Shown here piece by piece: positions 30,923 through 62,707 of a stretch of 64,000 nucleotides of DNA. The position numbers and the translations under genes are program-made. The DNA comes from Treponemataceae bacterium. GTDB lineage: Bacteria; Spirochaetota; Spirochaetia; Treponematales; Rectinemataceae. The notes under the pieces are model-generated. The model saw nothing but the letters and a program-made list of their open reading frames with translations. It was not told the DNA's origin and searched no databases. The number at the start of each line of letters is the position of its first letter. Position 1 is the first letter of the stretch. The stretch is taken from NCBI GenBank assembly GCA_963667725.2, contig CAXXHO010000004.1:32001-96000 (forward strand), given 5' to 3'.

Positions 30923-30947
30923 AGAATGTTCAAACTTTGAACATTCT
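30923..30947. promoter_or_regulatory. perfect palindrome, possible operator
   Basis: AGAATGTTCAAA-C-TTTGAACATTCT. Confidence 0.4.
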
Positions 30948-31963: not shown

Positions 31964-32106
31964 GGGTGTAGCATAGAGTACGCTGATGGCTGGAAACAAG
32001 GGCGGCGTCGTGGGGGACGCCGCAAGCGCGCCGGGTGGGGGAGGTCGCGGCGGAATTTTTGCGGGATTTCTTTTACTTTACTGAACATTAGTGTAGAGTA
32101 TCGCTG

Positions 32107-32790
32107 ATGAAATTCGAGGATATCGTCCGAACCTTCGGCGACAAGCCCTGGTTCGACTTCGAGATGGCGCACCTCGTCTCGGGCGAGGCGGCGCCGTGCG
32201 TCCATACGGAACTCTACCGCTGGCGGCAGGCGGGCAAGCTCGTCGAGCTGCGGCGGGGATTCTTCACGCTGGCCGAGCCTTGGCGGCGCCGTTCCCTGGA
32301 CGGGGCGGAGCTGGCGGGGGGGCTGTACGAGCCCTCCTACCTGTCGGGGAGCTGGGCGCTGGCGAGGCTGGGAGCCTTGCCGGCGCCCGCGGGGCACACC
32401 CCTGAAGGCTTGCCCCGCTACACCTCGGCGACGACGCGTCCGGCCGCGGTCTTTGAGAACGCCTTGGGGCGGTACGAGTACGCGGCGCTGCCGAGGGATT
32501 TGATGTTCGGGATGACGCCCAGGGGCAATGGCGGCAGCGGCGGCAGCGGGGCGCCCGCGATAGCGGGCGCCGCCTGCGTTGCCACTCCCGAAAAGGCGCT
32601 GCTGGACTGGTGGCTCATTGAAGGCGGAGACTGGGACGAGGGCCGCATGGAGGCCGCTGCTCTGAATCCAACGCCCATTAACCTTGAGCGGCTGAAGGCG
32701 GCGGCGGACCGCGCGGGCCGTCCCAGGCTCGCGAAAGCGGTGCGGGCCTTCCGCCGCTACGCGGCGCGGAAAGGAGCGGCGCAATGCTGA
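32107..32790 (+). CDS. AbiEi-like type IV antitoxin
   Basis: N-terminal wHTH (LYRW...GKLVELRRG), PSYLS..WAL, ATPEKALLD. Confidence 0.75.
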   Translation: MKFEDIVRTFGDKPWFDFEMAHLVSGEAAPCVHTELYRWRQAGKLVELRRGFFTLAEPWRRRSLDGAELAGGLYEPSYLSGSWALARLGALPAPAGHTPEGLPRYTSATTRPAAVFENALGRYEYAALPRDLMFGMTPRGNGGSGGSGAPAIAGAACVATPEKALLDWWLIEGGDWDEGRMEAAALNPTPINLERLKAAADRAGRPRLAKAVRAFRRYAARKGAAQC

Positions 32791-33242
32791 AAGACGAGAT
32801 GCTCGCGCTGGCGGCCGCGGTTCCCGACTCCGAGGGGAAGCGCGCCGTCTTGCGGGATTGCCTGCAGGCCTCGGTGCTGCGGTCCTTCCACGAGGCCGAG
32901 GCCTTCCTGTCCGTGGCGATCGCAAGCGAGGGCGCGGCGGGCCTCGAGTTCGCCCTTCTGGACAAGAAAGACTACAAGCCCGAGCGCTGGCTCTTCGCGG
33001 CCAAGCGCCGACTCTGGTTCATGGGGCTTGATCCGCGCATAGCCTTCGCGCGCAAGCTCTCGGTCCACCAGGGCTGGGTCAAGGTGCCCGGCCTCCTGGC
33101 GGAGGCGGGGCTGCCCGAGGACGCCGCGGATCCGCTGGGGGTCAGGATTCAGATCGCTTTGGCGCCGCCCGAGCATTGTGGTACCTCAGTGGCCATCGTG
33201 GAACGCTTTGGGCTGCGGTTTGGGATTAAGAGGACAGGATGA
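32784..33242 (+). pseudogene. degenerate/truncated AbiEii-like nucleotidyltransferase toxin
   Basis: Overlaps the antitoxin; LRDCLQASVLRS.HEAEAF resembles the AbiEii N-terminus, but the GGT...SEDLDF motif is absent; ends in repeat A (KRTG*). Confidence 0.55.
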
Positions 33243-33396
33243 CGGGACCGGACAGGATTTACTGGGAGAATGTTTTTGGGTTAGGAGAACGCGCGGCTCT
33301 TCTCGCAGCCTGTCTCGTTTACCTATTTCTTTTCTTCTCTTTCTTTCTTAACCATAAGCTTTTTCCTGTCAGTCCTGATGGTCCTGTTGTCCTGTC
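33233..33396 (+). repeat. repeat A copy
   Basis: GACAGGATGACGGGA...GGGTTAGGA...TCTTAACC...TCCTGTTGTCCTGTC. Confidence 0.95.
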
Positions 33397-34068
33397 GTAG
33401 TATTCACGCCGATAAAGCCTAGGTAGGTGTCGCGGTTGACGCACTCGAAACCGGCGCCGGGATACGCGGCGGTCCAGGAAGCGGGCGGCCGGAGCGTCCG
33501 TTTGGCGAGCTTGAACTCGAAGCCGGCGAGGTTGCCTTCCGACTCCTCGACATAGTCGAGTTCGGCTCCCGTATGCGTGCGCCAGAACCATGCGCCGCCG
33601 TGCCAGCCCCGATAGGCGTTGTGCTTTCTCCGCTCGCCGACGAGGAAGTTCTCCCAGAGAGCGCCCTTGTCCGGCCTTAGCTCCCAGTCCTTGAAATCAT
33701 CGATCAGCGCGTTCCTGATTCCGTTGTCGTAGAAATAAATCTTGTCCTTGCGGGTCACTTCTTTCCTGAGGTTCCTGCCGTAGCCGCCGAGGCGGAAGAC
33801 GACAAAGGCCTTTTCGAGCAGGTCGATATAGGAGATCACCGTGTCGGCGCTCATGGAAGTTTGCCGGCCCAGTTCTTGATAGGAGACTTCAGATCCCACC
33901 TGATAGGCCAGGAGGCGCAGGAGGTCCCGAAGCTTGCGCGGGTTGCGGATGCCGCCCAGCTCGAGGACAGCTTCTCGCCAAGTTCGGGAAAGGCGATCGG
34001 ATAGAGCGTATAGGTTCGGGCGATGGAGAGGCTTGAGCGATCGCTCGACGTTCGGGATCGGTCCTAGT
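33369..34068 (-). pseudogene. AAA_14/DUF4143 gene remnant (decayed duplicate of 38947-40137)
   Basis: 33397-33969 nearly identical to 38996-39568; 5' part reduced to short joined fragments. Confidence 0.9.
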
Positions 34069-34120
34069 AGATGTTATGGCGCGATTTCATCGACTATGAA
34101 AGATGAAATGGTGAGAATTG

Positions 34121-34284
34121 GACAGGATGACAGGAATGGGACAGGATTAACAGGAAAGAGTTTTTGGGTTGGGAAAGAGGACACAGTGCGCTTCTCGGAG
34201 TTTGGCGCGGTTACCTATCGCCGCGCTTCTCTTTCTTGAGCAAAGGCGCTTTCCTGTGAGTCGTGGGGGTCCTGTCGTCCTGTC
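34121..34284 (+). repeat. repeat A copy
   Basis: GACAGGATGACAGGAATGGGACAGG...TCCTGTCGTCCTGTC. Confidence 0.95.
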
Positions 34285-34285
34285 T

Positions 34286-34312
34286 AAAAGTTAAAAAATG
34301 GGGTCTGACCCC
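34286..34312. repeat. repeat B (AAAAGTTAAAAAATGGGGTCTGACCCC)
   Basis: Palindromic core at 34300-34312, abutting repeat A. Confidence 0.85.
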
Positions 34313-34315
34313 CTC

Positions 34316-35656
34316 TTAACGGCGCGCCAGCTTATTATTGACCGTATCCTTGTCGAAGCGATCCGGTGCCCAGCGGATCCTGGGAGCCGGCGAGGCGAAC
34401 AGCGTGGCCGAGGCTTCAGCACGAAGTTCCTTATAACCCTCGATGCCGCCGCAGTCTTCGGGGGGAGTAGCCATGGCGCCGTCCAGGCAGACGCAGCAGG
34501 AGGTCCAGGCTTCCTCGTCTTGGAACTTTTCCCGCGCCTTCACTTTTATGGAATGCACCCAGTCGTCGCCAAAATCGTAGGTGTATTCGAGCGTATGGCC
34601 CACCTTGAGCCTCAGTTCGTCGAGGCTGACGATATCGTCGGCGATGATCACTCGCTCCTCGTCGTCCGAGAGTTCGCCGAATATCGCATGGTCATAGCGA
34701 AACTCATGGAGGTGATAGTCTTCCCAGCCGAAGGCGTCCTGCAGGCAGCGATGGAGGTCGGCGAGGGTCCGGTTGCCGGGAATCCGGAGGGTTCTGAAGA
34801 TGCGCGGCTTGGTTCCTCGCAGGGCGACTTCCAGCACATAGCTGTACTTCGAGGGCATGTACCCCTGGCGGGAGAGGGTGGCATGGTTGGAATCACGGCC
34901 TTTCGCCGGTATTTTCCTGGCGTGCCGCCGAGAGGACATAAGGGCTTCCAGGTCATCGAGGGTGGCTAGGTACGCTTTAAGGCTGGCGTTGCCTTGTTTC
35001 AGCACTTCGGCGAGGCGCGCTTTATCGGAGCGCAGCGGCTCATCGAGCTGGTGGCACAGGTTGAGGAGCTCGTTCATTTTAACGAGGTGCGCGGCAAGCT
35101 GTTTTTCTTCAGCTTCCGATGCATCCTCCAGGCTGTGGCGGACGATGCGCATCCAGAGAAGGAAGCGTTCGAAAATATCCATCAGGGCTTCGCGGAGGTA
35201 GTTTGCCTGCGGGATCTCGATGATGGAGAAATCGATGGTATCGAGGAAAGCCTCCGCCGCGCCGCGCGCGCAGGCTCTTAGCGCTTTGCGCCCGGATTCA
35301 GGAATTCCCGTGAAACAGAGGCCCACGAGCGTTCGATCGATCGCCTTTTCAATGAGGCTTTCCCGAAGGGCCGAGTCCGATGCAAGCTTTTTCTTGGTGA
35401 ATGTGCCGATTGCCGCATAGTGTCCGAGTTCGACGGCGAGGAAGTGTTCGATATCGGCCGCATCCACCGATAGATCGTATTCCTCGGCGAGGTCATGAAA
35501 GGGATCCAGGGAAGGCAATGCGCCCTTGGTGATGTCCTGAAACATTTCCTGCATGAGGGCAAGCTCTTTGTCGGAGAGCCCCTCCAGCATGGCGTTGCAG
35601 GCATTGGTTATGGCCGCAGCATCGAGTGGGTCTTTGCTCTTTTTCATGGTTCCCAT
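34316..35656 (-). CDS. plasmid pRiA4b ORF-3 family protein with long N-terminal extension
   Basis: TLADLH..LQDAFGWEDYHLHEF, YTYDFGDDWVH, PPEDCGGIEGY. Confidence 0.85.
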   Translation of the reverse strand: MGTMKKSKDPLDAAAITNACNAMLEGLSDKELALMQEMFQDITKGALPSLDPFHDLAEEYDLSVDAADIEHFLAVELGHYAAIGTFTKKKLASDSALRESLIEKAIDRTLVGLCFTGIPESGRKALRACARGAAEAFLDTIDFSIIEIPQANYLREALMDIFERFLLWMRIVRHSLEDASEAEEKQLAAHLVKMNELLNLCHQLDEPLRSDKARLAEVLKQGNASLKAYLATLDDLEALMSSRRHARKIPAKGRDSNHATLSRQGYMPSKYSYVLEVALRGTKPRIFRTLRIPGNRTLADLHRCLQDAFGWEDYHLHEFRYDHAIFGELSDDEERVIIADDIVSLDELRLKVGHTLEYTYDFGDDWVHSIKVKAREKFQDEEAWTSCCVCLDGAMATPPEDCGGIEGYKELRAEASATLFASPAPRIRWAPDRFDKDTVNNKLARR

Positions 35657-35712
35657 GGGTGTTTACTTTATGCTGGTTCTTTGGTTTTTGCCAGAAGGTT
35701 TCTTGGGATGTG

Positions 35713-35833
35713 GACAGGATGACGGGACTGGACAGGATTTACGGGAAGGAGTTATGGGTTAGGAGGGAGCGCGGCTCTTCTTTCTTAGCTAAAAGCTTTT
35801 TCCTGTGGGTCCTGGGAGTCATGGGATCCTGTC
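35713..35833 (+). repeat. repeat A copy (short loop)
   Basis: GACAGGATGACGGGACTGGACAGG...GGATCCTGTC. Confidence 0.9.
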
Positions 35834-35835
35834 CT

Positions 35836-35862
35836 AAAAGTTAAAAATTGGGGTCAGACCCC
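35836..35862. repeat. repeat B
   Basis: AAAAGTTAAAAATTGGGGTCAGACCCC; supplies the TGA stop of 35854-37221. Confidence 0.85.
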
Positions 35863-37221
35863 ATTTAGCAACCTTTCGGATTGTTCAACGAGGTAGAGGG
35901 GGAGGGAGAGAAGCTTAAAGGGCTGAGAGGGTTTCCCCGCGATCGAGGTCGTGGACTCAAGGCAAGAAGGCACGTCGTCGTTGAAACGCAACCCCAAGGA
36001 AGCGTTTTTCTCCTGGAGGAACACCTGGAGCGACCTGAGACGGCCTGTCTTGCCCGCCTTGACTTCGACGGGAACAACCCGGCTTCCCTGCTGGATGAGA
36101 TAATCCACTTCGGCCGTGGATCCCTTGTTCCGCCGGTTCCAATAGAAAAGCGAAGGCTCGTGATAGAACCCATTCCGGTATAAAAGATGCTGACCGATGA
36201 ACTGCTCCGCCATGGCGCCGGAATTGACAAGCGTCATATCCCTATCGCGCGGAAAGTCGGCTGCGTTGAGACCCAGAAAAGACGCCAGAAGCCCGATATC
36301 CAGAAAAACAAGTTTGAAGGATGAAGGATGGACCTCGGCTCCAAGGGGAATCCCGTTCCCATCCGAATGGAACACCCTGAACACGAGGCGCGCCTTCTCC
36401 AACAGATCCAGGCTCTCTCGCACCTGGATCGATCGAGCGAGAGGATTGAGGCTCGAGTATTTCGCCGTCTTGCCGATCGTCGCGGGAATATTCTTGAAGA
36501 CTGCCTGCAGCATCGGAACATCGGCTTTTCGCTTATACTTGCTGAAATCGGCATAGTAGGTGAGCAATAGGTTGCTCTGCGCGCGCGACGCGGCTTTCAA
36601 GTCCAGATCCGATTCTATGAAAGCCTTTACCACCCCCGGCAAGCCCCCAACCAGGAAGTACTCCCTCATGCAGGCTCGCGCCTTGGCATGAAGCGCTTCG
36701 GGAAGGCTTTGCGGAATTCGGTATTCGGAAAGGTACTCGCGCAGCTGCTCCTGTCCGCGAGCCAGGAGGAATTCCTCAAAACTCATGGGCCCCAGATACA
36801 TGAATTCGATTCTTCCGACGGGAACGGAATATTCCGGCGCGCCGAGCGAGAAATCCAAGAGGGAGCCCGCGGCGATCACATGGAGTTCCGGCATTTTTTC
36901 GTAGAAATAGCGGAGCTTGGCGAGAACCGCGGGAACCGCTTGAATTTCATCAAGGAAAAGAAGGGTCTTCCCCGGGACTATCTTCTCGGAAGCATCGACT
37001 TCGATAAGCCGCACGATGGTCCGGACATCAGGCTCGTCGAAAAGGCTCGCTTTTTCGGGATCTTCATCGAAATTGATTTCCACGACCGAATCGAATGCCT
37101 GGCGCGCGAAGATCCGCACAAGCTCCGTTTTTCCCACTTGCCGGGCTCCGCGCAGTACGAGAGGTTTTCTGTCGGGCCTTACGCGCCACTGCGCGAGAAA
37201 ATCGAAGGCGAAGCGTATCAT
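35854..37221 (-). CDS. AAA_14 ATPase with DUF4143 and C-terminal PD-(D/E)XK-like motif
   Basis: GARQVGKT, LDEIQ, AAGSLL, PVGR, EVDY..PVEVK. Confidence 0.9.
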   Translation of the reverse strand: MIRFAFDFLAQWRVRPDRKPLVLRGARQVGKTELVRIFARQAFDSVVEINFDEDPEKASLFDEPDVRTIVRLIEVDASEKIVPGKTLLFLDEIQAVPAVLAKLRYFYEKMPELHVIAAGSLLDFSLGAPEYSVPVGRIEFMYLGPMSFEEFLLARGQEQLREYLSEYRIPQSLPEALHAKARACMREYFLVGGLPGVVKAFIESDLDLKAASRAQSNLLLTYYADFSKYKRKADVPMLQAVFKNIPATIGKTAKYSSLNPLARSIQVRESLDLLEKARLVFRVFHSDGNGIPLGAEVHPSSFKLVFLDIGLLASFLGLNAADFPRDRDMTLVNSGAMAEQFIGQHLLYRNGFYHEPSLFYWNRRNKGSTAEVDYLIQQGSRVVPVEVKAGKTGRLRSLQVFLQEKNASLGLRFNDDVPSCLESTTSIAGKPSQPFKLLSLPLYLVEQSERLLNGV

Positions 37222-37228
37222 GAAATTG

Positions 37229-37257
37229 ATTATGCACTATTTACCTAGTATTTTCAA
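37229..37257 (-). promoter_or_regulatory. leaderless-type sigma70 promoter
   Basis: TTGAAA-17-CATAAT-7 nt-ATG(37221); no SD. Confidence 0.6.
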
Positions 37258-37285
37258 CATTTTTTGCTATTATTATAGGATATTT

Positions 37286-37453
37286 GACAGGATGACAGGA
37301 ATGGGACAGGATTAACAGGAAAGAGTTTTTGGGTTAGGAAGGAGAACGCGCGGCTCTTCTCGCAGCCTGTCTCGTTTACCTATTTCTTTTCTTCTCTTTC
37401 TTTCTTAACCAAAAGCTTTTTCCTGTCAGTCCTGATGGTCCTGTCGTCCTGTC
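37286..37453 (+). repeat. repeat A copy
   Basis: Full copy; right arm encodes TGRQDHQD* of the adjacent minus-strand gene. Confidence 0.95.
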
Positions 37454-38748
37454 GCCTTATTGAGCAGGGAGAGCGCGTAGAGGGGGATGTTCGTCAGCCA
37501 GCTTTGTTCGCGGTAGGGCGACAGCGAGGTTCGAAAAGCGCGCGGGGGCGAAAACTTGTCGTAATAGACGCGGAGGCTCTTGGCTTGCAGGTTTTCCGCC
37601 GCTTTTACTTCGAGGGGGTAAACAGAACCTTGGGCCTGAAGCAAAAAATCGACCTCAGCCCGGGAGGTGTCGCTCGACCAGTATGAGGCATCCATTTCTT
37701 CCATGAGACACAATTCCTGCGCGACATATTGCTCGGTCAGCGCGCCCTTGAATTCCTCGAAAAGGGCGTTCCCCCGCAATACCGCCTGCATCGGCAAGCC
37801 CGCATGCGCCGCCAGCAGCCCGATATCAAGCATGTAGAGCTTGAACGCGTTGAGCTCCTGATATGCCTTGAGCGGAAGCCCGGGCTTCGAGACTCTGAAG
37901 ATTTTGCGCGACAAGCCCGCATCGCAAAGCCACTCGATCGCGGATTCATATTCTCTCGCCCTGGCGCCCTCGCGGACGAGTCCGTACACGAATTTTTTCT
38001 GTTCCCGGGCCAATTGGGCCGGCAGGGAATTCCAGACCGCCCGGATCCGAGGGACCGTGTCTGGTTTCGCGTATTTCGAAAAATCCCGTTCATAGGCTTC
38101 AAGCAGCGCTTTCTGGAAGACGCGGACCTTGTCGAGATCCTTGGTTTCCACGAAGGTGACCACGCTCTCCGGCATGCCGCCGACGCAATAGTAATAGCGC
38201 AGGGATTCGGTCAGCTTTTCCCTGAACGCATCGATCATGGACCAGTCGCCTGATGCGACAAGGTCCGCCAGCTCAGGCTCGCCGATGGCTTTCAAGAATT
38301 CCAGGAAGGAGAGCGGATAGAGATTCAAGAAGTCGACTTTGCCGACGGGGAAGGAAGTGTCCGCATGCAGCGAGATCCCCAGGAGCGATCCTGCCGCGAT
38401 AAGGTGGTACTGGGGAGCATTCTCATAAAAATACTTGAGCGAGGTGAGGGCCTTTGGGTTCGCCTGGACTTCGTCGAATACGATGAGCGTCTTTTCAGGC
38501 TCGATGGGCACGCCCGTCTCCACGCGCAAGCCCATGAGGAGGCGCGCAGGGTCCACGTTGGAGGAGAAAAGCGTTGTCATACGCTCATTGGACTCGAAAT
38601 TTATATAGGCGATGTTTTGGTAGATGCTTTTGCCGAATTCTTTGAGCAGCCATGTTTTGCCGACTTGGCGGGCGCCGTTCAGGACGAGAGGTTTTCTGCG
38701 CGGATCACGTTGCCACGCCAGCAGGGCTGAGAGGGCTTTTCTTTCCAT
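37426..38748 (-). CDS. AAA_14/DUF4143 ATPase
   Basis: GARQVGKT, FDEVQ, FPVGKV, GGMPE, EVDF..PLEVK. Confidence 0.9.
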   Translation of the reverse strand: MERKALSALLAWQRDPRRKPLVLNGARQVGKTWLLKEFGKSIYQNIAYINFESNERMTTLFSSNVDPARLLMGLRVETGVPIEPEKTLIVFDEVQANPKALTSLKYFYENAPQYHLIAAGSLLGISLHADTSFPVGKVDFLNLYPLSFLEFLKAIGEPELADLVASGDWSMIDAFREKLTESLRYYYCVGGMPESVVTFVETKDLDKVRVFQKALLEAYERDFSKYAKPDTVPRIRAVWNSLPAQLAREQKKFVYGLVREGARAREYESAIEWLCDAGLSRKIFRVSKPGLPLKAYQELNAFKLYMLDIGLLAAHAGLPMQAVLRGNALFEEFKGALTEQYVAQELCLMEEMDASYWSSDTSRAEVDFLLQAQGSVYPLEVKAAENLQAKSLRVYYDKFSPPRAFRTSLSPYREQSWLTNIPLYALSLLNKATGRQDHQD

Positions 38749-38830
38749 ACTATAAGTGTATTGCGGGTCATCACAAAAGTGTAGCCTCTTTTGTGATTAG
38801 TTGAACAAAAGTCGTACAAGTTTTGTGTTT

Positions 38831-38995
38831 GACAGGATGACAGGAATGGGACAGGATTTACAGGTAGGAGTTTTTGGTTAGGAAGGAGAACGCGGCTCTT
38901 CTCGCAGCCTGTCTCGTTTATTTATTTCTTTTCTTCTCTTTCTTTCTTAACCAAAAGCTTTTTCCTGTGGGTCCTGACGGTCCTGTCGTCCTGTC
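38831..38995 (+). repeat. repeat A copy
   Basis: Full copy. Confidence 0.95.
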
Positions 38996-40137
38996 TTAGT
39001 ATTCACGCCGATAAAGCCTAGGTAGGTGTCGCGGTTGACGCACTCGAAACCGGCGCCGGGATACGCGGCGGTCCAGGAAGCGGGCGGCTGGAGCGTCCGT
39101 TTGGCGAGCTTGAACTCGAAGCCGGCGAGGTTGCCTTCCGACTCCTCGACATAGTCGAGCTCGGCTCCCGTATGCGTGCGCCAGAACCATGCGCCGCCGT
39201 GCCAGCCCCGATAGGCGTTGTGCTTTCTCCGCTCGCCGACGAGGAAGTTCTCCCAGAGAGCGCCCTTGTCCGGCCTTAGCTCCCAGTCCTTGAAGTCGTC
39301 GATCAACGCGTTCCTGATCCCGTTGTCGTAGAAATAGACCTTATCCTTGCGGGTCACTTCTTTCCTGAGGTTCCTGCCGTAGCCGCCGAGCCGGAAGACG
39401 ACAAAAGCCTTTTCAAGCAGGTCGACATAGGAGATCACCGTGTCGGCGCTCATGGAAGTTTGTCTGCCTAATTCCTGATATGAGACTTCCGATCCCACTT
39501 GATAGGCCAGAAGGCGCAGGAGATCCCGAAGCTTCCGCGGGTTGCGGATGCCGCCCAGCTCGAGGACATCCTTGTACAGGTATGCGGAACTCAATTCCAG
39601 AAGGTGCGCGACTTTGTCGGCTTTCGCGCCCATGCTGAAAAGCGCGGGATACAGCCCGAGCACGAGGCATTCGGGCAGACTCCCCTCGAGCTCGAAGGGA
39701 GACAGCTTTTCGCCAAGCTCGGAAAAGGCGATCGGATAGAGCGTATAGGTCCAGGTTCGCCCCGTGAGTGCTTCGGTGGCGGTTCGGGCGATGGAGAGGC
39801 TCGAGGAGCCCGTCACCAGGAGCGAGCCGGGGAAGCCTTCGTCGTAGAGCAGCTTGAGCGCCCGCTCGACGTTCGGGATGTGCTGCGCCTCGTCGACGCA
39901 GACGAGATCGAAGCCGGCGATTTGCCCTTTGATCATGCGAAGATCGCTCGAAGCCCAGAGCTCCTGTACGCGCGGATCCTCGCCGTTGACCATGATGGTT
40001 TTGCCTTCGAAGCTCCGCATCGCAGCCCGGGCAAGGGTTGTCTTGCCGCATTGCCGAGGCCCATAAAGAAGCACTATGCGCCGGTCGGTCCGCAGGCGGT
40101 GCTGGAGTATCCCTAAGAGCGCTCTATCGATGTTCAT
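38947..40137 (-). CDS. AAA_14/DUF4143 ATPase
   Basis: GPRQCGKTT, VDEAQ, TGSSS, LTGR, KVYFYDNGIRN, GALWEN, ELDY..GFEFK. Confidence 0.9.
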   Translation of the reverse strand: MNIDRALLGILQHRLRTDRRIVLLYGPRQCGKTTLARAAMRSFEGKTIMVNGEDPRVQELWASSDLRMIKGQIAGFDLVCVDEAQHIPNVERALKLLYDEGFPGSLLVTGSSSLSIARTATEALTGRTWTYTLYPIAFSELGEKLSPFELEGSLPECLVLGLYPALFSMGAKADKVAHLLELSSAYLYKDVLELGGIRNPRKLRDLLRLLAYQVGSEVSYQELGRQTSMSADTVISYVDLLEKAFVVFRLGGYGRNLRKEVTRKDKVYFYDNGIRNALIDDFKDWELRPDKGALWENFLVGERRKHNAYRGWHGGAWFWRTHTGAELDYVEESEGNLAGFEFKLAKRTLQPPASWTAAYPGAGFECVNRDTYLGFIGVNTKTGRQDRQDPQEKAFG

Positions 40138-40192
40138 AATAGATATTATAACGCGATTTCATCGACTATGGAAGATGAAATTGTGTGAATTG

Positions 40193-40326
40193 GACAGGAT
40201 TTACAGGTAGGAGTTTTGGGTTAGGAAGGAGAGCTCGGCTTTTCTCCTAACCCTTTTTTATATTCTCTTTTCTTCTCTTCTCTTTCTTAACTAAAAGCTT
40301 TTTCCTGCTAGTCCTGGGATCCTGTC
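40193..40326 (+). repeat. repeat A copy (shortened outer arms)
   Basis: GACAGGATTTACAGGTAGG...GGATCCTGTC. Confidence 0.9.
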
Positions 40327-40341
40327 GTAAACTTCAAAATT

Positions 40342-40354
40342 AGGGTCAGACCCC
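40342..40354. repeat. repeat B core
   Basis: AGGGTCAGACCCC after AAACTTCAAAATT. Confidence 0.75.
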
Positions 40355-40357
40355 GCT

Positions 40358-41698
40358 TTAACGACGCTCCAGCTTTTTGTTGACCGCGTCTTTGTCGAAG
40401 CGCTCCGGGACCCAGCGAATCCTGGGAGTCTTGGGGACGAACAGCGTGGCCGATGCCTCCGCTCGGAGTTCCTTATAGCCCTCGATGCCGCCGCAGTCTT
40501 CGGGGGGAGCGGCCATGGCGCCGTCCATGCAGACGCAGCGGGAAGTCCAGGCTTCCTCGCCTTGGAGCTTGTCCCGCGCCTTTACTTTTATAGAATGCAC
40601 CCAGTCATCACCGAAATCGTAGGTGTATTCGAGCGTATAGCCTACCTTGAGCCCAAGCTCGTCGAGGCTGACGATGTCGTCGGCGATGATCACGCGTTCC
40701 TCCTCATCCGAGAGCTCGCCGAATATCGCATGGTCATAGTGAAACTCATGGAGGTGATAGTCTTCCCAGCCGAAGGCGTCCTGCAGGCAGCGATGGAGGT
40801 CGGCGAGGGTCCGGTTGCCGGGGATGCGGAGGGTTCTGAAGATGCGCGGCTTGGTTCCCCGCAGGGCGATTTCCAGCTCATAGTAATACTTCGAGGGTAT
40901 GTACCCCTGGCGGGAGAGGGTGGCATGGTTGGAATCACGGCCTTTCGCCGGTATTTTCCTGGCGTGCCGCCGAGAGGACATAAGGGCTTCCAGGCCATCG
41001 AGGGTGGCGAGGTACGCTTTAAGGCCGGCCTGGCCTTGTTTCAGCACTTCGGCGAGGCGCGCTTTGTCGGAGCGCAGTGTTTCGTCGAGCTGATAGCACA
41101 GGTTGAGGAGCTCGTTCATTTTGGCGAGGTGCGTGGCGAGCTGTTTTTCTTCAGCTTCAGACGCTTCGTCCAGGTTGTGGCGAACGATGCGCATCCAGAG
41201 AAGGAAGCGTTCAAAAATCTCCATAAGGGCTTCGCGGAGATAGTTTGCCTGCGGGTTCTCAATGATGGAGAGATCGATGCCATCGAGGATGGCCTCCGCC
41301 GCGCCGCGCGCGCAGAGCCTCAGCGCTTTGCGTCCGGATTCGGGAATGCCCGTTACGCAGAGGCCCACGAGCGTTCGATCGATCGCACTTTCCATGAGCC
41401 GTTCCCGAAAGGCCGGGTCGGAGGCGAGCTTTTTCTTGGTGAGTTTGCCGATTGCCGCATAGTGTCCGAGTTCGACGGCGAGGAAGTTTTCAATATCGGC
41501 CGCATCAACCGAAAGGTCGTATTCCTCGGCGAGGTCGTGAAAGGGGTCGCGGGAGGGCAATGCGCCCTGGGTGATGTCTTGAAGCATTTCCTGCATGAGG
41601 GCCAGCTCTTTATCGGAGAGTCCCTCCAGCATGGCATTGAAGGCATTGCCGATCGTCGCGGCATCGAGGGGGTCTCTGCTCTTTTTCGTGGTTCCCAT
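40358..41698 (-). CDS. pRiA4b ORF-3 family protein, paralogue of 34316-35656
   Basis: Same length (446 aa), colinear and highly similar. Confidence 0.85.
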   Translation of the reverse strand: MGTTKKSRDPLDAATIGNAFNAMLEGLSDKELALMQEMLQDITQGALPSRDPFHDLAEEYDLSVDAADIENFLAVELGHYAAIGKLTKKKLASDPAFRERLMESAIDRTLVGLCVTGIPESGRKALRLCARGAAEAILDGIDLSIIENPQANYLREALMEIFERFLLWMRIVRHNLDEASEAEEKQLATHLAKMNELLNLCYQLDETLRSDKARLAEVLKQGQAGLKAYLATLDGLEALMSSRRHARKIPAKGRDSNHATLSRQGYIPSKYYYELEIALRGTKPRIFRTLRIPGNRTLADLHRCLQDAFGWEDYHLHEFHYDHAIFGELSDEEERVIIADDIVSLDELGLKVGYTLEYTYDFGDDWVHSIKVKARDKLQGEEAWTSRCVCMDGAMAAPPEDCGGIEGYKELRAEASATLFVPKTPRIRWVPERFDKDAVNKKLERR

Positions 41699-41740
41699 GG
41701 GTGTTTACTCTATGATGTTTCTTTGGTTTTTGCCAGAAGG

Positions 41741-41776
41741 TTTTCCTGGTAGTCCTGATGGTCCTGCTATCCTGTT
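41741..41776 (+). repeat. repeat A right half only
   Basis: TTTTCCTGGTAGTCCTGATGGTCCTGCTATCCTGTT. Confidence 0.75.
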
Positions 41777-41804
41777 AAAAAGTTGAAAATTGGGGTCTGA
41801 CCCC
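41777..41804. repeat. repeat B
   Basis: AAAAAGTTGAAAATTGGGGTCTGACCCC. Confidence 0.85.
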
Positions 41805-41808
41805 GAAG

Positions 41809-43122
41809 CTAGAGCGCCCACCAGGGGATGGCGGTGACTGTGTCGCTTATGCGAAGGGGATACGGGGCACGGCAAACGATGTATCCCTGAGGCGCGACGG
41901 CCTTATGATCCTGCAGGAACGCCTCGAGATGGCGCGCATCCTTTTTTGTCGGGTTTTCCGTCCATTTCACCTCTATCGGGACAAGCGCTCCCGCACGCTC
42001 CACGATAAAATCAATCTCAGCTCCGCCCGCGGTGCGATAATAGCTGAGTTTCGCGTCTCCGCGATAGGCAAGCCTCTTATAGAGCTCTATGCCCACCCAT
42101 TGTTCAAAAAGAGGGCCCGGGTTCGCGAGCACCGTGTCCGGACCGAAGGAAAGCCCCGCCAGCGCATTCCGCACGCCGAGATCGATGAAAAAGAATCGGG
42201 GGCTGGAAAGCGCGGTCTTGCGCGGGCTTCCGGAAAAAGCGGGTACCGTGAATCCAAGAAACATGTCCTCGAGAAGCTGATAATGCGCCTTGATCGTGGG
42301 CGAGGAGACTCCCGATTCTTTGGCGATCCCTGAAAAGTTGACAATGCTCCCCGATTCGGCGGCCGCGAGCGACAAGAATCGCAGGAAAGGCCCCCACGCC
42401 CTTATCTGCGCTTCCCGATGAAGCTCCTCCTCGACATACGCGCCCGCATAGGCGCGAAGCACGTCGCTCCTATCGGAGCGCTCGACCGCAATTCCGGGAA
42501 GATCGCCAAAAGTCATCCTATCCTCGAGGCTCCTCGGCGGAAAGGGTATCTTCAGGGAAGGTTCATCCTGAAGACAGGGAAGCAGGCTTCGCCTTCCGGC
42601 GAGTCGGTCGATAGGATATCCCACGGGGATCGTTTGTTCGTACTCGGCGCTGGTGAGCGGATAGAGTCGATGCATGAAGCTTCTGCCGGGGAGCAAATTG
42701 GCGCCGATGCGCCTGAGCCGCCGCGCCGAGCTCCCGCAAAGTATGAAACGGCTGCGCCGCTCTTCCGGCAAAATTCGTTTTTCCTCATCGTAAAGAAATT
42801 GGACCGCATCGAAAAGCTCCGGTACGGTTTGGGCCTCGTCAAGGAAGACCCATCGCGGAGTACCCGCGCGAGGGTTCCCCGAATCGGGGAGCGCTCGGTA
42901 AAGATCGATGAACCTCCCGGGAGCGGCGGCGAACCGCATCCGCAGGGAGGGATCGGAAAAATCGAAGACGAGCGCATCGGAGGGAATACAGCTTCTAATG
43001 AGCGTCGATTTCCCCGTTTGACGAGCGCCGAACATGATATGGACATAGGGCGCCGCCAATTTTTTAGAAAACTCCCCGAAATAAAGTCGATCGAACAGTT
43101 CCATATCCGAATCATCGAACAT
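41809..43122 (-). CDS. AAA_14/DUF4143 ATPase
   Basis: GARQTGKST, LDEAQ, GSSARRL...NLLPGR, GAEIDF..PIEVK. Confidence 0.9.
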   Translation of the reverse strand: MFDDSDMELFDRLYFGEFSKKLAAPYVHIMFGARQTGKSTLIRSCIPSDALVFDFSDPSLRMRFAAAPGRFIDLYRALPDSGNPRAGTPRWVFLDEAQTVPELFDAVQFLYDEEKRILPEERRSRFILCGSSARRLRRIGANLLPGRSFMHRLYPLTSAEYEQTIPVGYPIDRLAGRRSLLPCLQDEPSLKIPFPPRSLEDRMTFGDLPGIAVERSDRSDVLRAYAGAYVEEELHREAQIRAWGPFLRFLSLAAAESGSIVNFSGIAKESGVSSPTIKAHYQLLEDMFLGFTVPAFSGSPRKTALSSPRFFFIDLGVRNALAGLSFGPDTVLANPGPLFEQWVGIELYKRLAYRGDAKLSYYRTAGGAEIDFIVERAGALVPIEVKWTENPTKKDARHLEAFLQDHKAVAPQGYIVCRAPYPLRISDTVTAIPWWAL

Positions 43123-43190
43123 TTGCCCAGAATTGTAAACTATTACTTTAAATAATTTGAGTATTTTTAAAGTGTTGCTTTTAATTTGTT

Positions 43191-43374
43191 GACAAGACAG
43201 GATTACAGGATGGGACAGGATTTACAGGAAGGAGTTTCGGGTTAGGAAAGAGGACGCTGCGCGCTTCTCGGAGCTTGGCGCGGTTACCGCGGTTACCTAT
43301 CGCTGGACTTCTCTTTCTTGACCAAAGGCGCTTTCCTGTAGGTCCTGAAGGTCCTGTCGTCCTGTCGTCCTGTC
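43191..43374 (+). repeat. repeat A copy
   Basis: GACAAGACAGGATTACAGG...TCCTGTCGTCCTGTCGTCCTGTC. Confidence 0.95.
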
Positions 43375-43460
43375 CTTGGGCTTCTTGAATTACGGGAAGC
43401 CGCGGAGATACTTAAACTTATCGGAGTTTCCATTTTCCACGCATCACCGCCTGGGAGGAA

Positions 43461-44438
43461 ATGATGAACAAAAAGGCTACCCGGCATTTTGGATTCCCGT
43501 CGATCATCCTGGCGCTCCTCGCGCTGGCGGCATGGGGCGCGCTGGCCGCCTGCAGCCTGGACACCTACGAACCCAAGGAAAACGAAGTGAAGGTGACCAT
43601 CTCGGGCCTGGGCGACAAGGCCGTCCTTGCCCGCGAAAGCCTTGGCGCCGAGAAGGCGCGGGGCTTCGCGGCGTCCTGGGTGAAGGTGGCGGTGATCGAC
43701 GGCGACGGCGCCCAAACCGGATCGGGCAGCCTCGCCCTGGAGAACGGCGTCTGGGAAGGCTACGTCCAGCTGTCCGGCCCGGGCGCGATGACCTTCATCG
43801 TCTCCGCCGGAACGGCGGCAGACCAGGTCTCGTGGATGGGCAACGGCGCCCTGACCGTCGGCGGGAAAGGCCAGGAGATCACCGTGACGGTGACGGTGCC
43901 CGCCCTCGGCGCGAAGGGCCCCGCCGGCGGCTCGATCTTCTACGACAAGGGCAGCTACTCGAACGGCTGGCGATACCTGGAAGCCTCGCCCACCGACACC
44001 GCGGCGACGGCCTCCGTTTCCGACAATGGGTACCGGCTCTGGGCGGCCCAGACAACCTATGTCGTGGGCAACACCTACGCGGGGATCGGCTACGGCAAGG
44101 AGAACACGGACTGGATCCAGGCCGCGGGCAACGCCACGATGTACCCGGCCGCCTGGTATTGCGCCGAATTGGAATGCGGCGGCGCGGCCGACTGGTTCCT
44201 GCCCTCGTGGGACGAGCTTGCCGAGATGCGGAAGGTCATCGGCCACGCCGGCTTCCATGTCGAGTATCAAGGCGCCTTTTGGTCTTCGACCGAGCGGACG
44301 GCCCTGGACGGCGGCACGGACGCGGCCTACTACGTCTACACAGACGCCTACAAGACGACGAAGGGTCCGGCGCTGAAGACCAACGCGGACGTGTACGTGA
44401 AGGCCGCGCGGCGGTTTTTATGTAAGAGGACAGGATGA
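43461..44438 (+). CDS. lipoprotein with C-terminal DUF1566/Lcl-like domain
   Basis: Signal peptide with LAAC lipobox; GPAGG.IFYDKG...WRYLEA.P, DWFLPS.DEL, FWSSTE; GGAGG SD. Confidence 0.7.
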   Translation: MMNKKATRHFGFPSIILALLALAAWGALAACSLDTYEPKENEVKVTISGLGDKAVLARESLGAEKARGFAASWVKVAVIDGDGAQTGSGSLALENGVWEGYVQLSGPGAMTFIVSAGTAADQVSWMGNGALTVGGKGQEITVTVTVPALGAKGPAGGSIFYDKGSYSNGWRYLEASPTDTAATASVSDNGYRLWAAQTTYVVGNTYAGIGYGKENTDWIQAAGNATMYPAAWYCAELECGGAADWFLPSWDELAEMRKVIGHAGFHVEYQGAFWSSTERTALDGGTDAAYYVYTDAYKTTKGPALKTNADVYVKAARRFLCKRTG

Positions 44439-44593
44439 CGGGAATGGGACAGGATTTACTGAGAGAATGTTTTTGGGTTAGGAAAGACGACGTTGTGCGC
44501 TTCTCGGGGACTGGCACGGTTGCCTATCGCCGCGCTTCTCTTTCTTGACCAAAGGTTCTTTCCTGTAGGTCCTGATGGTCCTGTCGTCCTGTC
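44429..44593 (+). repeat. repeat A copy
   Basis: Full copy; supplies TG* to the lipoprotein gene. Confidence 0.95.
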
Positions 44594-44645
44594 AGATTCC
44601 CGAAGAGGGAGCCGGACCATCGGGCTGGCTGCGCTAGCGCTTCAG

Positions 44646-44984
44646 TCATGCCTTTGAGAGTTCGTTTTCAAGCGCTTTCTGCATGAGCTGGTTCAGGGAG
44701 ATCCCCTGCTCCACCGCCGTTCGCTTTGCTCTTTTATGCAGTTCGGGCGATATTCTCACGTTGAAGCTTCCCTTATAGGATTTTTCAGTTTCCTTTTCCT
44801 CTCGCTTGCAGGTTTCAAGATAGTCTTCAACGGATTCCTTAAAGGCGGATTTGAGGGCGTCGACGCTTTTCGCCTCAAAGGTCACCAAGTCGTCTATCCC
44901 TTCCAGCTTGCCATAGAAGATTTCGTCTTCAGCGCAGTAATGTACCGAGCCCATATAGTCTTTATAGGTAAGAACGTCTTTCAT
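44646..44984 (-). CDS. hicB: HicB-family antitoxin (orphan)
   Basis: YKDY.GSV, F.GK..GI.DLVTFE, F..SVEDYL..C, YKGSFNVRISPELH, SLN. Confidence 0.9.
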   Translation of the reverse strand: MKDVLTYKDYMGSVHYCAEDEIFYGKLEGIDDLVTFEAKSVDALKSAFKESVEDYLETCKREEKETEKSYKGSFNVRISPELHKRAKRTAVEQGISLNQLMQKALENELSKA

Positions 44985-44998
44985 TGTCTTTATTATAC

Positions 44999-45157
44999 GA
45001 CAGGACTACGGGATGGGACAGGATTTACAAGAAGGAGCTTTTAGGTTAGGAGGGCGCGCGGCGCTTATCGGAGCCTATTTAGGTTATGCATACTTGCTCT
45101 TCTCTTTCTTAACCAAAGGTTCTTTCCTGTAGGTCCTGATGGTCCTGTCGTCCTGTC
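44999..45157 (+). repeat. repeat A copy
   Basis: Full copy with a distinct loop. Confidence 0.95.
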
Positions 45158-45537
45158 GTGGTTTTGGGCGTGTAGTCGCGGTACTTGCGCTTGAAGGTGA
45201 TGTCCTGGGGGCCGAAGTTGATCACGAGGCCGGTGGGGGTGTCCGTGGCCTTGAGGTAGTTCACGAGCTGGACTTCGTGGGCTTTGGCGATGGCCTCGAC
45301 GGCTTTGAGCTCGAGGATCACGCGGCCTTTGACGATGACGTCGGCGAAGAAGGAGCCGATGACGGTTCCGTCGTAGAAGACGTCGATGGGCGCCTCGATG
45401 ATGAAGGGCAAGGCGGCTTTGTGCAGTTCCATGGCCATGGCTTGCTTGTAGACGGATTCCAGGAAGCCGGCGCCGAGGGTGTTGTACACCTTGAACGCGC
45501 ACCCGATGATTTTTTCCGTGAGCGGGTCGTCGATCAT
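45109..45537 (-). CDS. GxxExxY protein (PD-(D/E)XK-like nuclease fold)
   Basis: LGAGFLESVY, ADVIV...ILELKA, QLVNYLKAT...GLVINFG. Confidence 0.95.
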   Translation of the reverse strand: MIDDPLTEKIIGCAFKVYNTLGAGFLESVYKQAMAMELHKAALPFIIEAPIDVFYDGTVIGSFFADVIVKGRVILELKAVEAIAKAHEVQLVNYLKATDTPTGLVINFGPQDITFKRKYRDYTPKTTTGRQDHQDLQERTFG

Positions 45538-45581
45538 GCTAATATTCCGCGCAAAGATAGGGCTCTTGATTCAAATAATTG

Positions 45582-45744
45582 GACAGGACGACAGGAATGG
45601 GACAGGATTCACAGGAAGCGTTTTTGGGTTAAGAGAGCGCGCGGCTCTTCTCTTAACCCTTTTTCATTTTCTCCGCTCTTCTCTTCTCTTTCTTTCTTAA
45701 TCAAAAGCTTTTTCCTGTCAGTCTTGGGGTCCTGTTATCCTGTC
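45582..45744 (+). repeat. repeat A copy
   Basis: Full copy; supplies TG* to the CocE gene. Confidence 0.95.
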
Positions 45745-57117: not shown

Positions 57118-57301
57118 GACAGGACGACAGGAGGGGACAGGATTTACAGGAAATGTGTTTAGGTTAAGAGAACACGCGGCTCTTCTCTTAACCCTTTTTT
57201 TATTTCCATTTCTTCTCTTCTCTTTCTTTCTTAACCAAAAGCTCTTTCCTGTCAGTCCTGAGGAGTCCTGGGATCCTGTCGTGGAGTCCTGTCGTCCTGT
57301 C
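57118..57301 (+). repeat. repeat A copy
   Basis: Full copy with extra right-arm units. Confidence 0.95.
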
Positions 57302-58588: not shown

Positions 58589-58767
58589 GACAGGACGATA
58601 CGACAGGACGACAGGACTAGACAGGATCTACAGGAAATGTGTTTGGGTTAAGAGAACGCGCGGCTCTTCTCCTAACCTTTTTTTTAATCTTTTCTTCTCT
58701 TCTCTTCTCTTCTCTTTCTTAACCAAAAGCTCCTTCCTGTCAGTCCTGTGTTTCCTGTCGTCCTGTC
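58589..58767 (+). repeat. repeat A copy
   Basis: Starts immediately after the TAG of the GGDEF gene. Confidence 0.95.
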
Positions 58768-61416: not shown

Positions 61417-62565
61417 TTAGGCTCCAGCATCCAATAGCTGGGCAACGAGGGCATCGAGCGGGCAAAAAACAACGCGGAGATTGCCAATTTCCCGTTCGTA
61501 GGACCGATGCAGATCCGCCGCGACCACGTAATTGCGCCCCTGCGGATGAAGGGCTCTGAAGGCTCGAATGCCGTTAGGCTCGAATGCGTCGGCGGACCAT
61601 TTTACCTCTATCGCGCTGGGCGCTGTTCCGCGCGGCGCCCAAACAAAGTCGACTTCATGCCCTTCCTTGTCGCGCCAGGTGAACGGCGCGCTGTCCTGAA
61701 GTCCCGCGTTCATTTCGTTCAAGACGAGGTGTTCCCAGAAAAAGCCTTTTTCCTTTGCCGGAATCTCATGCAGCCCCTGCGCCCAGGCAATGAACCCTGT
61801 ATCGAAGCCATAGACGCGCGGTGTGGCCGTGATTTCCCTGGCGTTCCCCCCATGATAGGGACGCACGACGTGTACGAGATGCGTTGCTTCTAATATCCCG
61901 AGATAATTTATAATAGTGGTGCGGCTTACGCCGCATGAGGCCGCGAACGCGGTGGCGTTGAATTGCCCTCCGCTCTGCGCCAGAAGCAGTTCAGCGAATT
62001 TCAGGAACGAGGCGCGGCGCTCCAAGCGAAACAATTCGAGAATATCGCGCGCCCAGAATGCTTCTATCCATTCCGAATACTCTCTGTCATCGCGCGCTTC
62101 GGCAAGGAAGAATCCAGGCAAGCCGCCGTTCAGGAACCGTCTTGAACGATCGCCGTATCCCGGGAACGCGGTATCGTTTTCGCAGAGCGGGGTGAGCCTG
62201 AGTTCCAGCTTTCTGCCCGCCAAGGTATCTTTGAACTTTGCTGATGCGCCTAAGGTCGACGACCCTGTCGCTACAATGCGGATTTCCGGGAAATGGTCGG
62301 CGGCAATTTTAAGGAGGAGCGCGGGGTCGGCGAGCCGATGGATTTCGTCGAGCGCGAGGATTCCGCTCCCGATAGCTTTGAGGAATGCTTCAGGATCCTC
62401 AATCTCCCTTCGCACTGAAGGCAACTCGCAATCAAAGTAGCGGATTCCCTCCAAATTCTTGCAGAGAACGGTCTTTCCCACCCTACGGACGCCTGACAGC
62501 CAGACGATCGGACGCTTTTCCCATAGCGATCGGATTCTTGCTTCCCACCATTGCCTTTGTATCAT
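61417..62565 (-). CDS. AAA_14/DUF4143 ATPase
   Basis: GVRRVGKT, LDEIH, TGSS, LAGRK, EVDF..AIEVK. Confidence 0.9.
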   Translation of the reverse strand: MIQRQWWEARIRSLWEKRPIVWLSGVRRVGKTVLCKNLEGIRYFDCELPSVRREIEDPEAFLKAIGSGILALDEIHRLADPALLLKIAADHFPEIRIVATGSSTLGASAKFKDTLAGRKLELRLTPLCENDTAFPGYGDRSRRFLNGGLPGFFLAEARDDREYSEWIEAFWARDILELFRLERRASFLKFAELLLAQSGGQFNATAFAASCGVSRTTIINYLGILEATHLVHVVRPYHGGNAREITATPRVYGFDTGFIAWAQGLHEIPAKEKGFFWEHLVLNEMNAGLQDSAPFTWRDKEGHEVDFVWAPRGTAPSAIEVKWSADAFEPNGIRAFRALHPQGRNYVVAADLHRSYEREIGNLRVVFCPLDALVAQLLDAGA

Positions 62566-62571
62566 ACAGGA

Positions 62572-62657: not shown

Positions 62658-62707
62658 TCCTGACAGTCCTGCCATCCTGTCCAAAAGTCAAAATTGAGGT
62701 CTGCCCC
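62658..62707 (+). repeat. repeat A right-arm remnant plus degenerate repeat B
   Basis: TCCTGACAGTCCTGCCATCCTGTC-C-AAAAGTCAAAATTGAGGTCTGCCCC. Confidence 0.7.

Follow-up and report, generated by a model that had tools for sequence, protein, structure and literature searches.

The described systems that come closest to an array of repeat-bounded genes are chromosomal integrons, whose attC recombination sites carry their boxes in the order R''(RYYYAAC)...R'(GTTRRRY), the repetitive extragenic palindromes (REPs) and their paired, hairpin-forming versions (REPINs) with REP-associated tyrosine transposases (RAYTs), miniature inverted-repeat transposable elements (MITEs), and the "minimal mobile elements" of Neisseria. 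The locus considered here is another repeat-gene-repeat array, built on an imperfect palindrome termed repeat A and found in a Treponemataceae bacterium (Rectinemataceae; assembly GCA_963667725.2, 4.22 Mb in 8 contigs). The window, meaning the whole stretch of 64,000 nucleotides that was analysed, comprises C4:32001-96000, where C4 is contig CAXXHO010000004.1. Coordinates without a contig prefix are window positions, and C1 to C7 are contigs of the same assembly; G-labels denote relative genomes (40 were compared), X-labels public sequencing runs, and L-labels individual loci.

The array consists of eleven copies of repeat A, all in the same orientation (+ strand), that occupy 33233-45744 and bound ten intervals. 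Repeat finding, alignment and Pfam searches bore out a sequence-only reading of this stretch, in that each of the ten intervals holds one gene and nine of the ten genes lie on the minus strand. The intervals comprise four AAA_14+DUF4143 genes and one DUF4143 remnant, two PRiA4_ORF3 genes (the only two in the genome), and one gene each for a lipoprotein, HicB and a PDDEXK_3 (GxxExxY) protein. PADLOC assigns the AAA_14+DUF4143 proteins to its candidate PDC-S01, with matches of up to 7e-181. PDC-S01 has been described as fourth in frequency among prokaryotic defence candidates and as still unvalidated (PMC12988326).

Repeat A measures 120-170 bp in the array (typically ~165 bases) and 115-177 bp genome-wide, with the ends GACAGGA...TCCTGTC. 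As seen in an alignment of the eleven sites, its left arm carries three to four (G)ACAGGA units at a spacing of 8-11 bases and then an inner stem; the centre is a variable, pyrimidine-rich loop, and the right arm is made up of TCCTGTC units. Folded as single-stranded DNA, the repeat forms long imperfect hairpins of -17 to -39 kcal/mol. A repeat search of the window returned families of 9-10 copies that span 33232-45746, and a profile made from eight of the window copies scored the window copies at E=1e-19 to 1e-53 (nhmmer). Three copies are incomplete: the one at 35713 is short (121 bp), the one at 40188 is without its outermost left units, and the one at 41732 is a right arm only. The right arm is also overrun by coding sequence, as the open reading frames (ORFs) at 33369-33899, 37426-38748 and 38947-40137 and the GxxExxY ORF all extend into it ahead of their stop codons. 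Moreover, a block of two cassettes is duplicated within the array, its two occurrences being intervals 1-2 and 5-6. A comparison of flanks found no target duplication at 37 near-full copies genome-wide, in agreement with what had been noted earlier for the copies compared.

Evidence for a cassette-like behaviour comes from other versions of the same island. Several small contigs of the assembly are 76-99% identical versions of regions of C5 (C4, C6 and C2 against C5; C1 and C7 against C5:555-617 kb), including three copies of an integron integrase region, and this duplication, together with a marker contamination of 6.3%, suggests co-assembled strains. Co-assembled strains, and not paralogues, probably account for the C4, C6 and C5 versions of the island. 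Read in reverse, C6 follows C4 collinearly, with an identity of 92-99% in the right flank and 78% in the left, and C5 carries a more distant version, at 76-88% identity. Between these flanks, C4 holds its ten cassettes, while C6 holds HicA-HicB, one AAA gene, an AAA remnant, small unknown ORFs and an FGE-sulfatase-domain gene. Sliding-window alignment of five homologous cassette pairs showed in every case that homology stops where the flanking repeats lie, either at or inside them; in a pair shared by C4 and C6, the gene segment is ~98% identical and its two bounding repeats only 65-92%. The order of two AAA cassettes is reversed between C4 (67.8 kb, then 69.4 kb) and C5 (752.05 kb and 750.55 kb). 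Finally, window positions 61404-62722 of the C4 allele contain an AAA_14+DUF4143 gene with a 24-base right-arm remnant, and the equivalent place on C6 is an intact solo repeat. No empty site could be defined by comparison with two same-genus genomes, which share only ~70% DNA identity and are not syntenic at the locus. A fourth allele, on C2, was considered as an empty site and set aside: it lacks the repeat and carries another gene next to the helicase, yet the left flank is not the same.

Public sequencing runs tell a similar story. Twenty of the 24 runs listed hold part of 36001-46000, and 14 hold half or more of the sampled words; the runs holding the region come from several studies and bear the labels wastewater, activated sludge or biofilm. 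Joints across cassettes were read from short-read contigs, placed at 90% likeness, of 4 of the 24 listed runs. The joint 35837->37474, with 32 other letters between, occurs in X12 and X6 and leaves out cassette 3 and copy 4; 37422->40276, in X5 and X6, skips cassettes 4 and 5 and leaves a hybrid repeat; 37300->44446, in X6, leads from cassette 3 to the HicB side; and 38861->34160 occurs in X5. A further X5 joint, 37453->35850, connects the end of copy 4 to cassette 3, as expected of a circle or of a tandem copy. Contigs that join across cassettes at repeats come from runs of three other studies, and the short connectors between the right-arm end and cassette 3 differ between contexts. Read cover is little or absent in places (for example 30.5-37.1 kb in X12, 33.5-35.9 kb in X5), and no inference is drawn from these holes. 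As far as assembled sequence goes, these comparisons show that gene modules have been lost, duplicated or put in another order from one allele or population to the next, and that the breakpoints coincide with repeats; the sequence-only reading had proposed a comparison of strains for cassette gain, loss or reordering. Related strains carry the same genes in other numbers and orders, and the repeats therefore appear to act as gene-swapping joints.

It is tempting to suggest, with about an even chance of being right, that gene-less copies of a GxxExxY-linked heptad-array element saturate the defence island and serve there as recombination joints. Repeat A would be the gene-less foldback form of this element, its arms being inverted phased ACAGGAT units, and copies would have filled almost every intergenic gap of the hypervariable island around the GxxExxY gene, all the same way round. 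Through this filling of gaps, each gene, mostly a PDC-S01 ATPase-nuclease, would have become a module bounded by two palindromes. The nuclease could bind the heptads and cut at or near the palindromes or at extruded hairpins, and repair against other copies would then spread the palindrome locally and exchange DNA between copies. By this scheme an integron-like outcome would be reached through break-induced or homologous recombination between portable palindromes, and attC and a tyrosine recombinase would play no part. A bolder proposal, which we regard as doubtful, is that the GxxExxY nuclease and phased-heptad palindromes constitute an undescribed class of mobile or recombination system in bacteria and archaea; in this spirochaete lineage it would form an integron-like platform, where the nuclease cuts palindromes and the genes between them are excised, copied or re-inserted, building strain-specific defence arrays without a tyrosine recombinase.

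The distribution of repeat A within the genome is strongly uneven. An iterated profile gave 52 non-overlapping matches at E<=0.01 (19 on C5, 14 on C4, 10 on C6, 6 on C3, 2 on C1 and 1 on C7), and 43 of the 52 lie on C4, C6 and C5, the three allelic versions of one hypervariable island. On C5, which is 1.37 Mb long, all 19 matches fall within 676.7-785.8 kb, no more than 77 kb from the C5 GxxExxY gene. A second array is found there at C5:743.7-757.1 kb, where ~13 copies separate six AAA_14/DUF4143 genes and one PDDEXK_3 gene. Solo copies also occur: among histidine kinase, MASE3-GGDEF and extracytoplasmic function (ECF) sigma factor genes (57118, 58602), between a DEAD helicase gene and its neighbour, between peptidase M19 and M42 genes, and beside glucuronate isomerase, GH88, cytochrome c assembly and ABC ATPase genes. 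In alleles C4 and C6, the MASE3-GGDEF gene (57341-58588) is bracketed by two solo copies, so that an ordinary signalling gene has the layout of a "cassette".

Orientation was called with separate left-arm and right-arm models, trained on C4; C5 was not in the training set. Twelve of the 14 copies called on C5 are "+", with one "-" and one undecided, and all nine on C6 are in the matching sense; the 12 of 12 that agree on C4 come from the contig that trained the models. The uniformity extends to solo copies beside unrelated genes of either direction, which hints at a strand-specific process or local copying. A 124-bp subtype at C5:745064, 746569, 750479, 753589 and 754153 has its arms in the common orientation and the pyrimidine-rich loop on the opposite strand, as would result if recombination between the arms had inverted the loop.

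A link between repeat A and GxxExxY proteins (PF13366) is suggested by several observations. PF13366 genes number just two in the genome, at 45109-45537 and C5:753.8 kb; each is part of a repeat-A array, where it stands between two full copies of the repeat, and both proteins retain the D...ELK motif. By eye, the PF13366 genes of relatives have inverted arrays of different short words at their flanks (ACGGAG, GCAGAG or CACAGAG, GCAAAG and CCAGAG), and at 5 of 13 PF13366 loci a 6-mer occurs at least twice to the left and its reverse complement at least twice to the right, within 130 bp. A maximum-likelihood tree of 14 PF13366 proteins, a small sample in which kin share labels, has a clade with 100/100 support that joins the four ACAGGAT-flanked proteins to that of G012, which has a single ACAGGA word in its flanks. 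Two of the four are from this genome, one from another spirochaete family and one from a Phycisphaeraceae metagenome-assembled genome (MAG), and proteins from the same spirochaete family but with other flanking words fall outside the clade. The sequence-only reading had treated GxxExxY as cargo. In view of the two of two genes inside arrays and the match between clade and word, it is more probably the element's own protein, and the gene product of 45109-45537 is likely the partner of repeat A. A PD-(D/E)XK survey describes PF13366 as a large family of function listed as unknown, with many transfers in its phylogeny, and lists DUF4143 likewise as of unknown function (PMC3424549). In the searchable literature, no paper on GxxExxY, PDDEXK_3, PF13366 or TIGR04256 was found that concerns a mobile element.

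Repeat A extends well beyond this genome. BLAST matches were found in 7 of the 40 relatives, including six of 24 in the same family and neither of the two in the same genus. The copies there are palindromes of 105-140 bp, some in tandem without a gene between them, and others bracket HicAB, AbiEii, MazF, ParE, PIN, AAA_21/RloB and AAA_14+DUF4143 genes, so that at least four other genera share the cassette-like layout with defence or toxin-antitoxin cargo. A copy of the repeat-A family adjoins a glucuronate isomerase gene in two genera (L015, C3:1816.2-1816.4 kb; L026, G005:C67), and G005 also has a PIN-domain gene between further copies of the family and an enolase gene. When an outer-arm pattern of 22+ fixed bases was scanned against a collection of species-representative genomes, it matched in at least 123 places. 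Among the matches listed, the hosts include Verrucomicrobiota, Planctomycetota, Kiritimatiellales, Lentisphaerae, Spirochaetota, Deltaproteobacteria, Acidobacteria, Armatimonadia and Ca. Methanoperedens, and many of these matches have an inverted partner 45-230 bp away. Of the flanking ORFs of the same listed matches, 7/136 are toxin-antitoxin or defence-like and 2/136 are transposase fragments, and those with a Pfam match are mostly housekeeping genes, for example uvrA, uvrB, guaB, ruvA, ftsH, pheS and purA. With about three phased ACAGGAT units per inverted arm and a presence across phyla and in archaea, repeat A shares the traits of the ACAGGAT heptad-array palindromes, and the comparison of sequences shows it to be a member of that cross-phylum family. 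Searches of the literature with arm strings of 15-17 bases found no description of the element. On a separate Spirochaetota MAG contig (L065, 6867 bp), three identical 1857-bp units each contain a 126-bp ACAGGAT palindrome and a 520-aa ORF without a Pfam match, and the ORF that follows has a PDDEXK_9 match.

Many of the DUF4143 genes keep company with repeat A: 13 of 20 lie no more than 650 bp from a match, a 14th has an arm remnant, and the remaining six sit tightly between housekeeping genes with no repeat nearby. The island also contains a second palindrome, perfect and ~37 bp long, with the core GGGGTCWGACCCC and AAGTTAAAAA-type flanks, of which 25 of the 28 exact cores are on C4 and C5. 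It is found at 34300-34312, 35850-35862, 41792-41804, 47654 and 53306 and, outside the window, at C5:694.8-695.7 kb and C4:25.1-26.0 kb; seven copies are no more than 100 bp away from a copy of repeat A, and in four cassettes the palindrome abuts the right arm. It also occurs as a terminator-like hairpin after cassette genes.

The genome has an integron of its own with which repeat A can be compared. Three IntI genes pass the TIGR02249 cut-off, at C5:550.9 kb and on C1 and C7, and none does so on C4 or C6. Beside the C5 intI is a long array of ~130-bp attC sites with YYTAAC...GTTRRR ends, and the C5 repeat-A array starts ~190 kb away from it. No integrase was found near the C4 and C6 arrays, as none of the 10 Phage_integrase matches in the genome is on C4 or C6, and the repeat-A profile has no match in the genome's integron array (nhmmer --max, E<=10). 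GTTAGGA...TCTTAAC is found in the inner stem of repeat A, but this order is opposite to that of the attC boxes, and its presence is taken as chance. An identity of repeat A with attC is therefore ruled out by the unrelated attC of the same genome, the reversed order of the boxes and the lack of a profile match, and two earlier judgements, that the repeat is not attC and that no integrase is in the window, are supported.

A serious rival to the reading of gene-less, GxxExxY-linked copies as recombination joints is homologous recombination between passive repeats. Repeat A would then be an old REP- or MITE-like palindrome with no active enzyme of its own, segmental duplication would have enlarged the array, RecA recombination and palindrome fragility would make it vary, and GxxExxY would be cargo. 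We consider this somewhat unlikely. It accommodates solo copies between housekeeping genes, the two-cassette block duplicated within the array, orthologous solo sites that persist in diverged alleles, and repeat-bearing relatives without PF13366. Some of these same facts, and others, weigh against the favoured reading. RecA recombination between 165-bp direct repeats could yield most of the rearrangements, short-read contigs can mis-join at repeats, and the counts on C4, C6 and C5 are not independent because these are related versions of one region. Certain solo copies occupy the same site in alleles that differ by ~18% (C4:100811, C5:785625) and are therefore old and stable, not recently moved. 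PF13366 is present in 16 of the 40 relatives and repeat A in 7, with both only in G012; repeat arrays without any PF13366 are found in G021 (95% complete) and G033 (99%), and a third array, on C6, is without a GxxExxY gene. Moreover, the gene lies outside the palindromes here (right arm, gene, left arm), whereas at five clear loci elsewhere it lies between left and right arm. A passive repeat nevertheless leaves unexplained that both GxxExxY genes are in arrays, that protein clade and flanking word match across phyla, that 25-base arms are near-identical in bacteria and archaea, that solo copies beside unrelated genes are uniformly oriented, and that the connectors between the right-arm end and the same gene vary by context.

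The remaining alternatives all invoke a dedicated enzyme or a different mobile party. It is conceivable, if improbable, that the locus is an integron-like capture system, in which a site-specific recombinase, another one or GxxExxY itself, excises circles of gene plus repeat and inserts them at a further repeat. One gene per interval, the common orientation, the defence and toxin-antitoxin cargo and similar arrays in four other genera of the family would all fit, as would the 35837->37474 contig that lacks cassette 3 and one repeat and the 37453->35850 contig, which a circle or tandem copy would give. Such a system fits poorly with the lack of a recombinase in or beside any of the three arrays, with cassettes that each keep their own upstream region, with repeats that also stand singly or in tandem without genes, with neighbours that in other phyla are mostly housekeeping genes among the matches listed, and with junction connectors too variable for a precise crossover. 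The sequence-only reading had favoured gene capture and shuffling at a new recombination site: shuffling at the repeats stands, while the repeat is not private to cassettes, given its solo, tandem gene-less and cross-phylum copies. The opposite outcome that had been envisaged, a repeat dispersed between housekeeping genes, is realised in part, in that solo copies exist but cassette behaviour is still seen between alleles and in metagenomes. Less probable again is that the AAA_14-DUF4143 genes are the mobile parties and home into the palindromes as targets. Their proximity to repeat A, with 13 of 20 close by and a 14th beside an arm remnant, speaks for this, as do the gene at 61404-62722, which takes the place of the left arm and loop in a solo copy that C6 has intact, and the same pairing of gene and repeat in G021 and G022; the six such genes without a nearby repeat, set tightly between housekeeping genes, the other gene families that are bracketed likewise and the intact, unsplit palindromes of the arrays speak against it. 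Finally, repeat A could be a REPIN mobilised by the genome's RAYT-like Y1 transposase (NF047646, 70.8 bits, below the 80-bit cut-off), whose gene is in the same islands. This gene is flanked on both sides by the second palindrome, with core GGGGTCWGACCCC, and not by repeat A; the Y1 protein is therefore an unlikely partner of repeat A, and the explanation is disfavoured as very improbable. The favoured reading, that copies of a GxxExxY-linked element act as joints in the island, fits the evidence best, at the even chance stated above.

The features of the array and of the solo copies in the window are collected in Table 1.

Table 1. Copies of repeat A, cassette genes and related features (window coordinates)
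Feature	Coordinates	Strand	Evidence
Repeat A copy 1, full palindrome	33233..33396	+	nhmmer E=1e-40; fold
AAA_14-DUF4143 gene remnant, DUF4143 part only; 97% identical to 3' part of 38947-40137	33369..33899	-	Pfam; repeat family
Repeat A copy 2	34121..34284	+	nhmmer; fold
PRiA4_ORF3-domain protein, 446 aa	34316..35656	-	Pfam 5e-43
Repeat A copy 3, short loop, 121 bp	35713..35833	+	nhmmer; fold
AAA_14+DUF4143 ATPase-nuclease, PADLOC candidate PDC-S01	35854..37221	-	Pfam; PADLOC 1.6e-143
Repeat A copy 4	37286..37453	+	nhmmer; fold
AAA_14+DUF4143 (PDC-S01), ~98% identical to allele C6 cassette	37426..38748	-	Pfam; PADLOC
Repeat A copy 5	38831..38995	+	nhmmer; fold
AAA_14+DUF4143 (PDC-S01)	38947..40137	-	Pfam; PADLOC
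Repeat A copy 6, lacking the outermost units (model positions 14-151)	40188..40327	+	nhmmer
Second PRiA4_ORF3 protein, duplicate of 34316-35656	40358..41698	-	Pfam; alignment
Repeat A copy 7, right arm only	41732..41775	+	alignment; nhmmer
AAA_14+DUF4143 (PDC-S01)	41809..43122	-	Pfam; PADLOC
Repeat A copy 8	43196..43366	+	nhmmer; fold
Lipoprotein, LAAC lipobox, weak Lcl_C/DUF1566-like C-terminus	43461..44438	+	Pfam; lipobox
Repeat A copy 9	44429..44593	+	nhmmer; fold
HicB antitoxin without HicA; allele C6 has HicA-HicB there	44646..44984	-	Pfam; allele comparison
Repeat A copy 10	44999..45157	+	nhmmer; fold
GxxExxY / PDDEXK_3 small PD-(D/E)XK nuclease, D...ELK motif present, candidate cognate protein of repeat A	45109..45537	-	Pfam 2e-38; TIGR04256
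Repeat A copy 11, last before conserved flank	45582..45744	+	nhmmer
Solo repeat A, between histidine-kinase gene and MASE3-GGDEF gene	57118..57280	+	nhmmer
Solo repeat A, after MASE3-GGDEF gene, in both alleles	58602..58767	+	nhmmer
AAA_14+DUF4143 gene where allele C6 has an intact solo repeat	61417..62565	-	allele comparison
Right-arm remnant, 24 bases, beside AAA_14+DUF4143 gene	62658..62681	+	allele comparison

Some further observations concern the array and its surroundings. Copy 10 begins 15 bp upstream of the HicB start codon, and C6:25758-26518 holds HicA-HicB at the corresponding place; either the HicA toxin gene has given way to a repeat and the GxxExxY cassette, or the reverse has happened. 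In the RNA-library run X15, contigs cover several cassettes; one contig bridges copy 6 (39712-40464, 753 bases, no mismatch) and contains the 5' part of one AAA gene, the repeat and the 3' end of the PRiA4 gene, reflecting either read-through transcription across the palindrome or DNA carry-over. Scans for promoters and terminators stayed at chance level, with 6 promoter-like sites (4.4 +/- 1.8 expected) and 18 terminator-like sites (17.2 +/- 5.0 expected), although three of the promoter-like sites are directly upstream of AAA start codons. An Rfam scan of 30000-48000 at E<=1 had MIR6462 as its sole match, and this identity for repeat A was rejected as a chance match on a long hairpin (34 bits, gathering score 96). 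The flank after copy 11 is conserved and contains Peptidase_S15 and opp ABC genes. On the other side of the array, at ~3300-30200, is a block of low-GC (25-40%) minus-strand genes with a Polysacc_synt_2 epimerase gene at its end, which looks like a strain-variable polysaccharide locus, and an IS200/IS605 TnpA gene is located at 17868-18323.

Should the link with repeat A hold, it would provide a function for GxxExxY (PF13366), and, if the scheme is true, there would be a second, integrase-free route for assembling and reshuffling arrays of defence genes. Since a true integron is present in the same genome, the two routes of array building could be compared in one organism. Even on the plainest reading, the locus offers a clear natural case of portable palindromes that make a defence island into exchangeable single-gene modules.

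How repeat A relates to known systems can be set out as a series of partial likenesses. Much like MITEs and MITE-bracketed units, such as Correia elements and MITE-flanked resistance genes, it is small, intergenic and furnished with terminal inverted repeats, and two copies can bracket a gene; unlike them, it is without a target duplication, strongly clustered and uniformly oriented, and no DDE parent element with repeat A ends was seen in the annotated regions of the genome. With the REP/REPIN-RAYT systems of Pseudomonas and E. coli, it shares an extragenic palindrome that forms a long hairpin and leaves no target duplication, a single-copy partner gene flanked by repeats, and copies downstream of genes. 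It differs from them in that its arms are arrays of phased 7-base words and not one short REP, the candidate partner is a protein of PD-(D/E)XK fold and not an HUH Y1 transposase (the RAYT-like Y1 gene having the other palindrome at its flanks), and the arm sequence is near-constant across phyla and in an archaeon, with copies clustered rather than dispersed. The intergenic mosaic elements and "minimal mobile elements" of Neisseria have different repeats, and here there is no link with uptake sequences and a candidate dedicated nuclease; the resemblance lies in repeat-rich sites between conserved flanks, where strain-specific genes are exchanged by recombination. Finally, the repeat-A array is unlike integrons in having no IntI beside it, a repeat without the order of attC boxes, cassettes that keep their own upstream regions, solo repeats between housekeeping genes and imprecise junctions. 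It is nonetheless like chromosomal integrons, including the Treponema-type one in the same genome, in its tandem single-gene units, its imperfect palindromes in one orientation, and a cargo of toxin-antitoxin and defence type whose content varies between strains.

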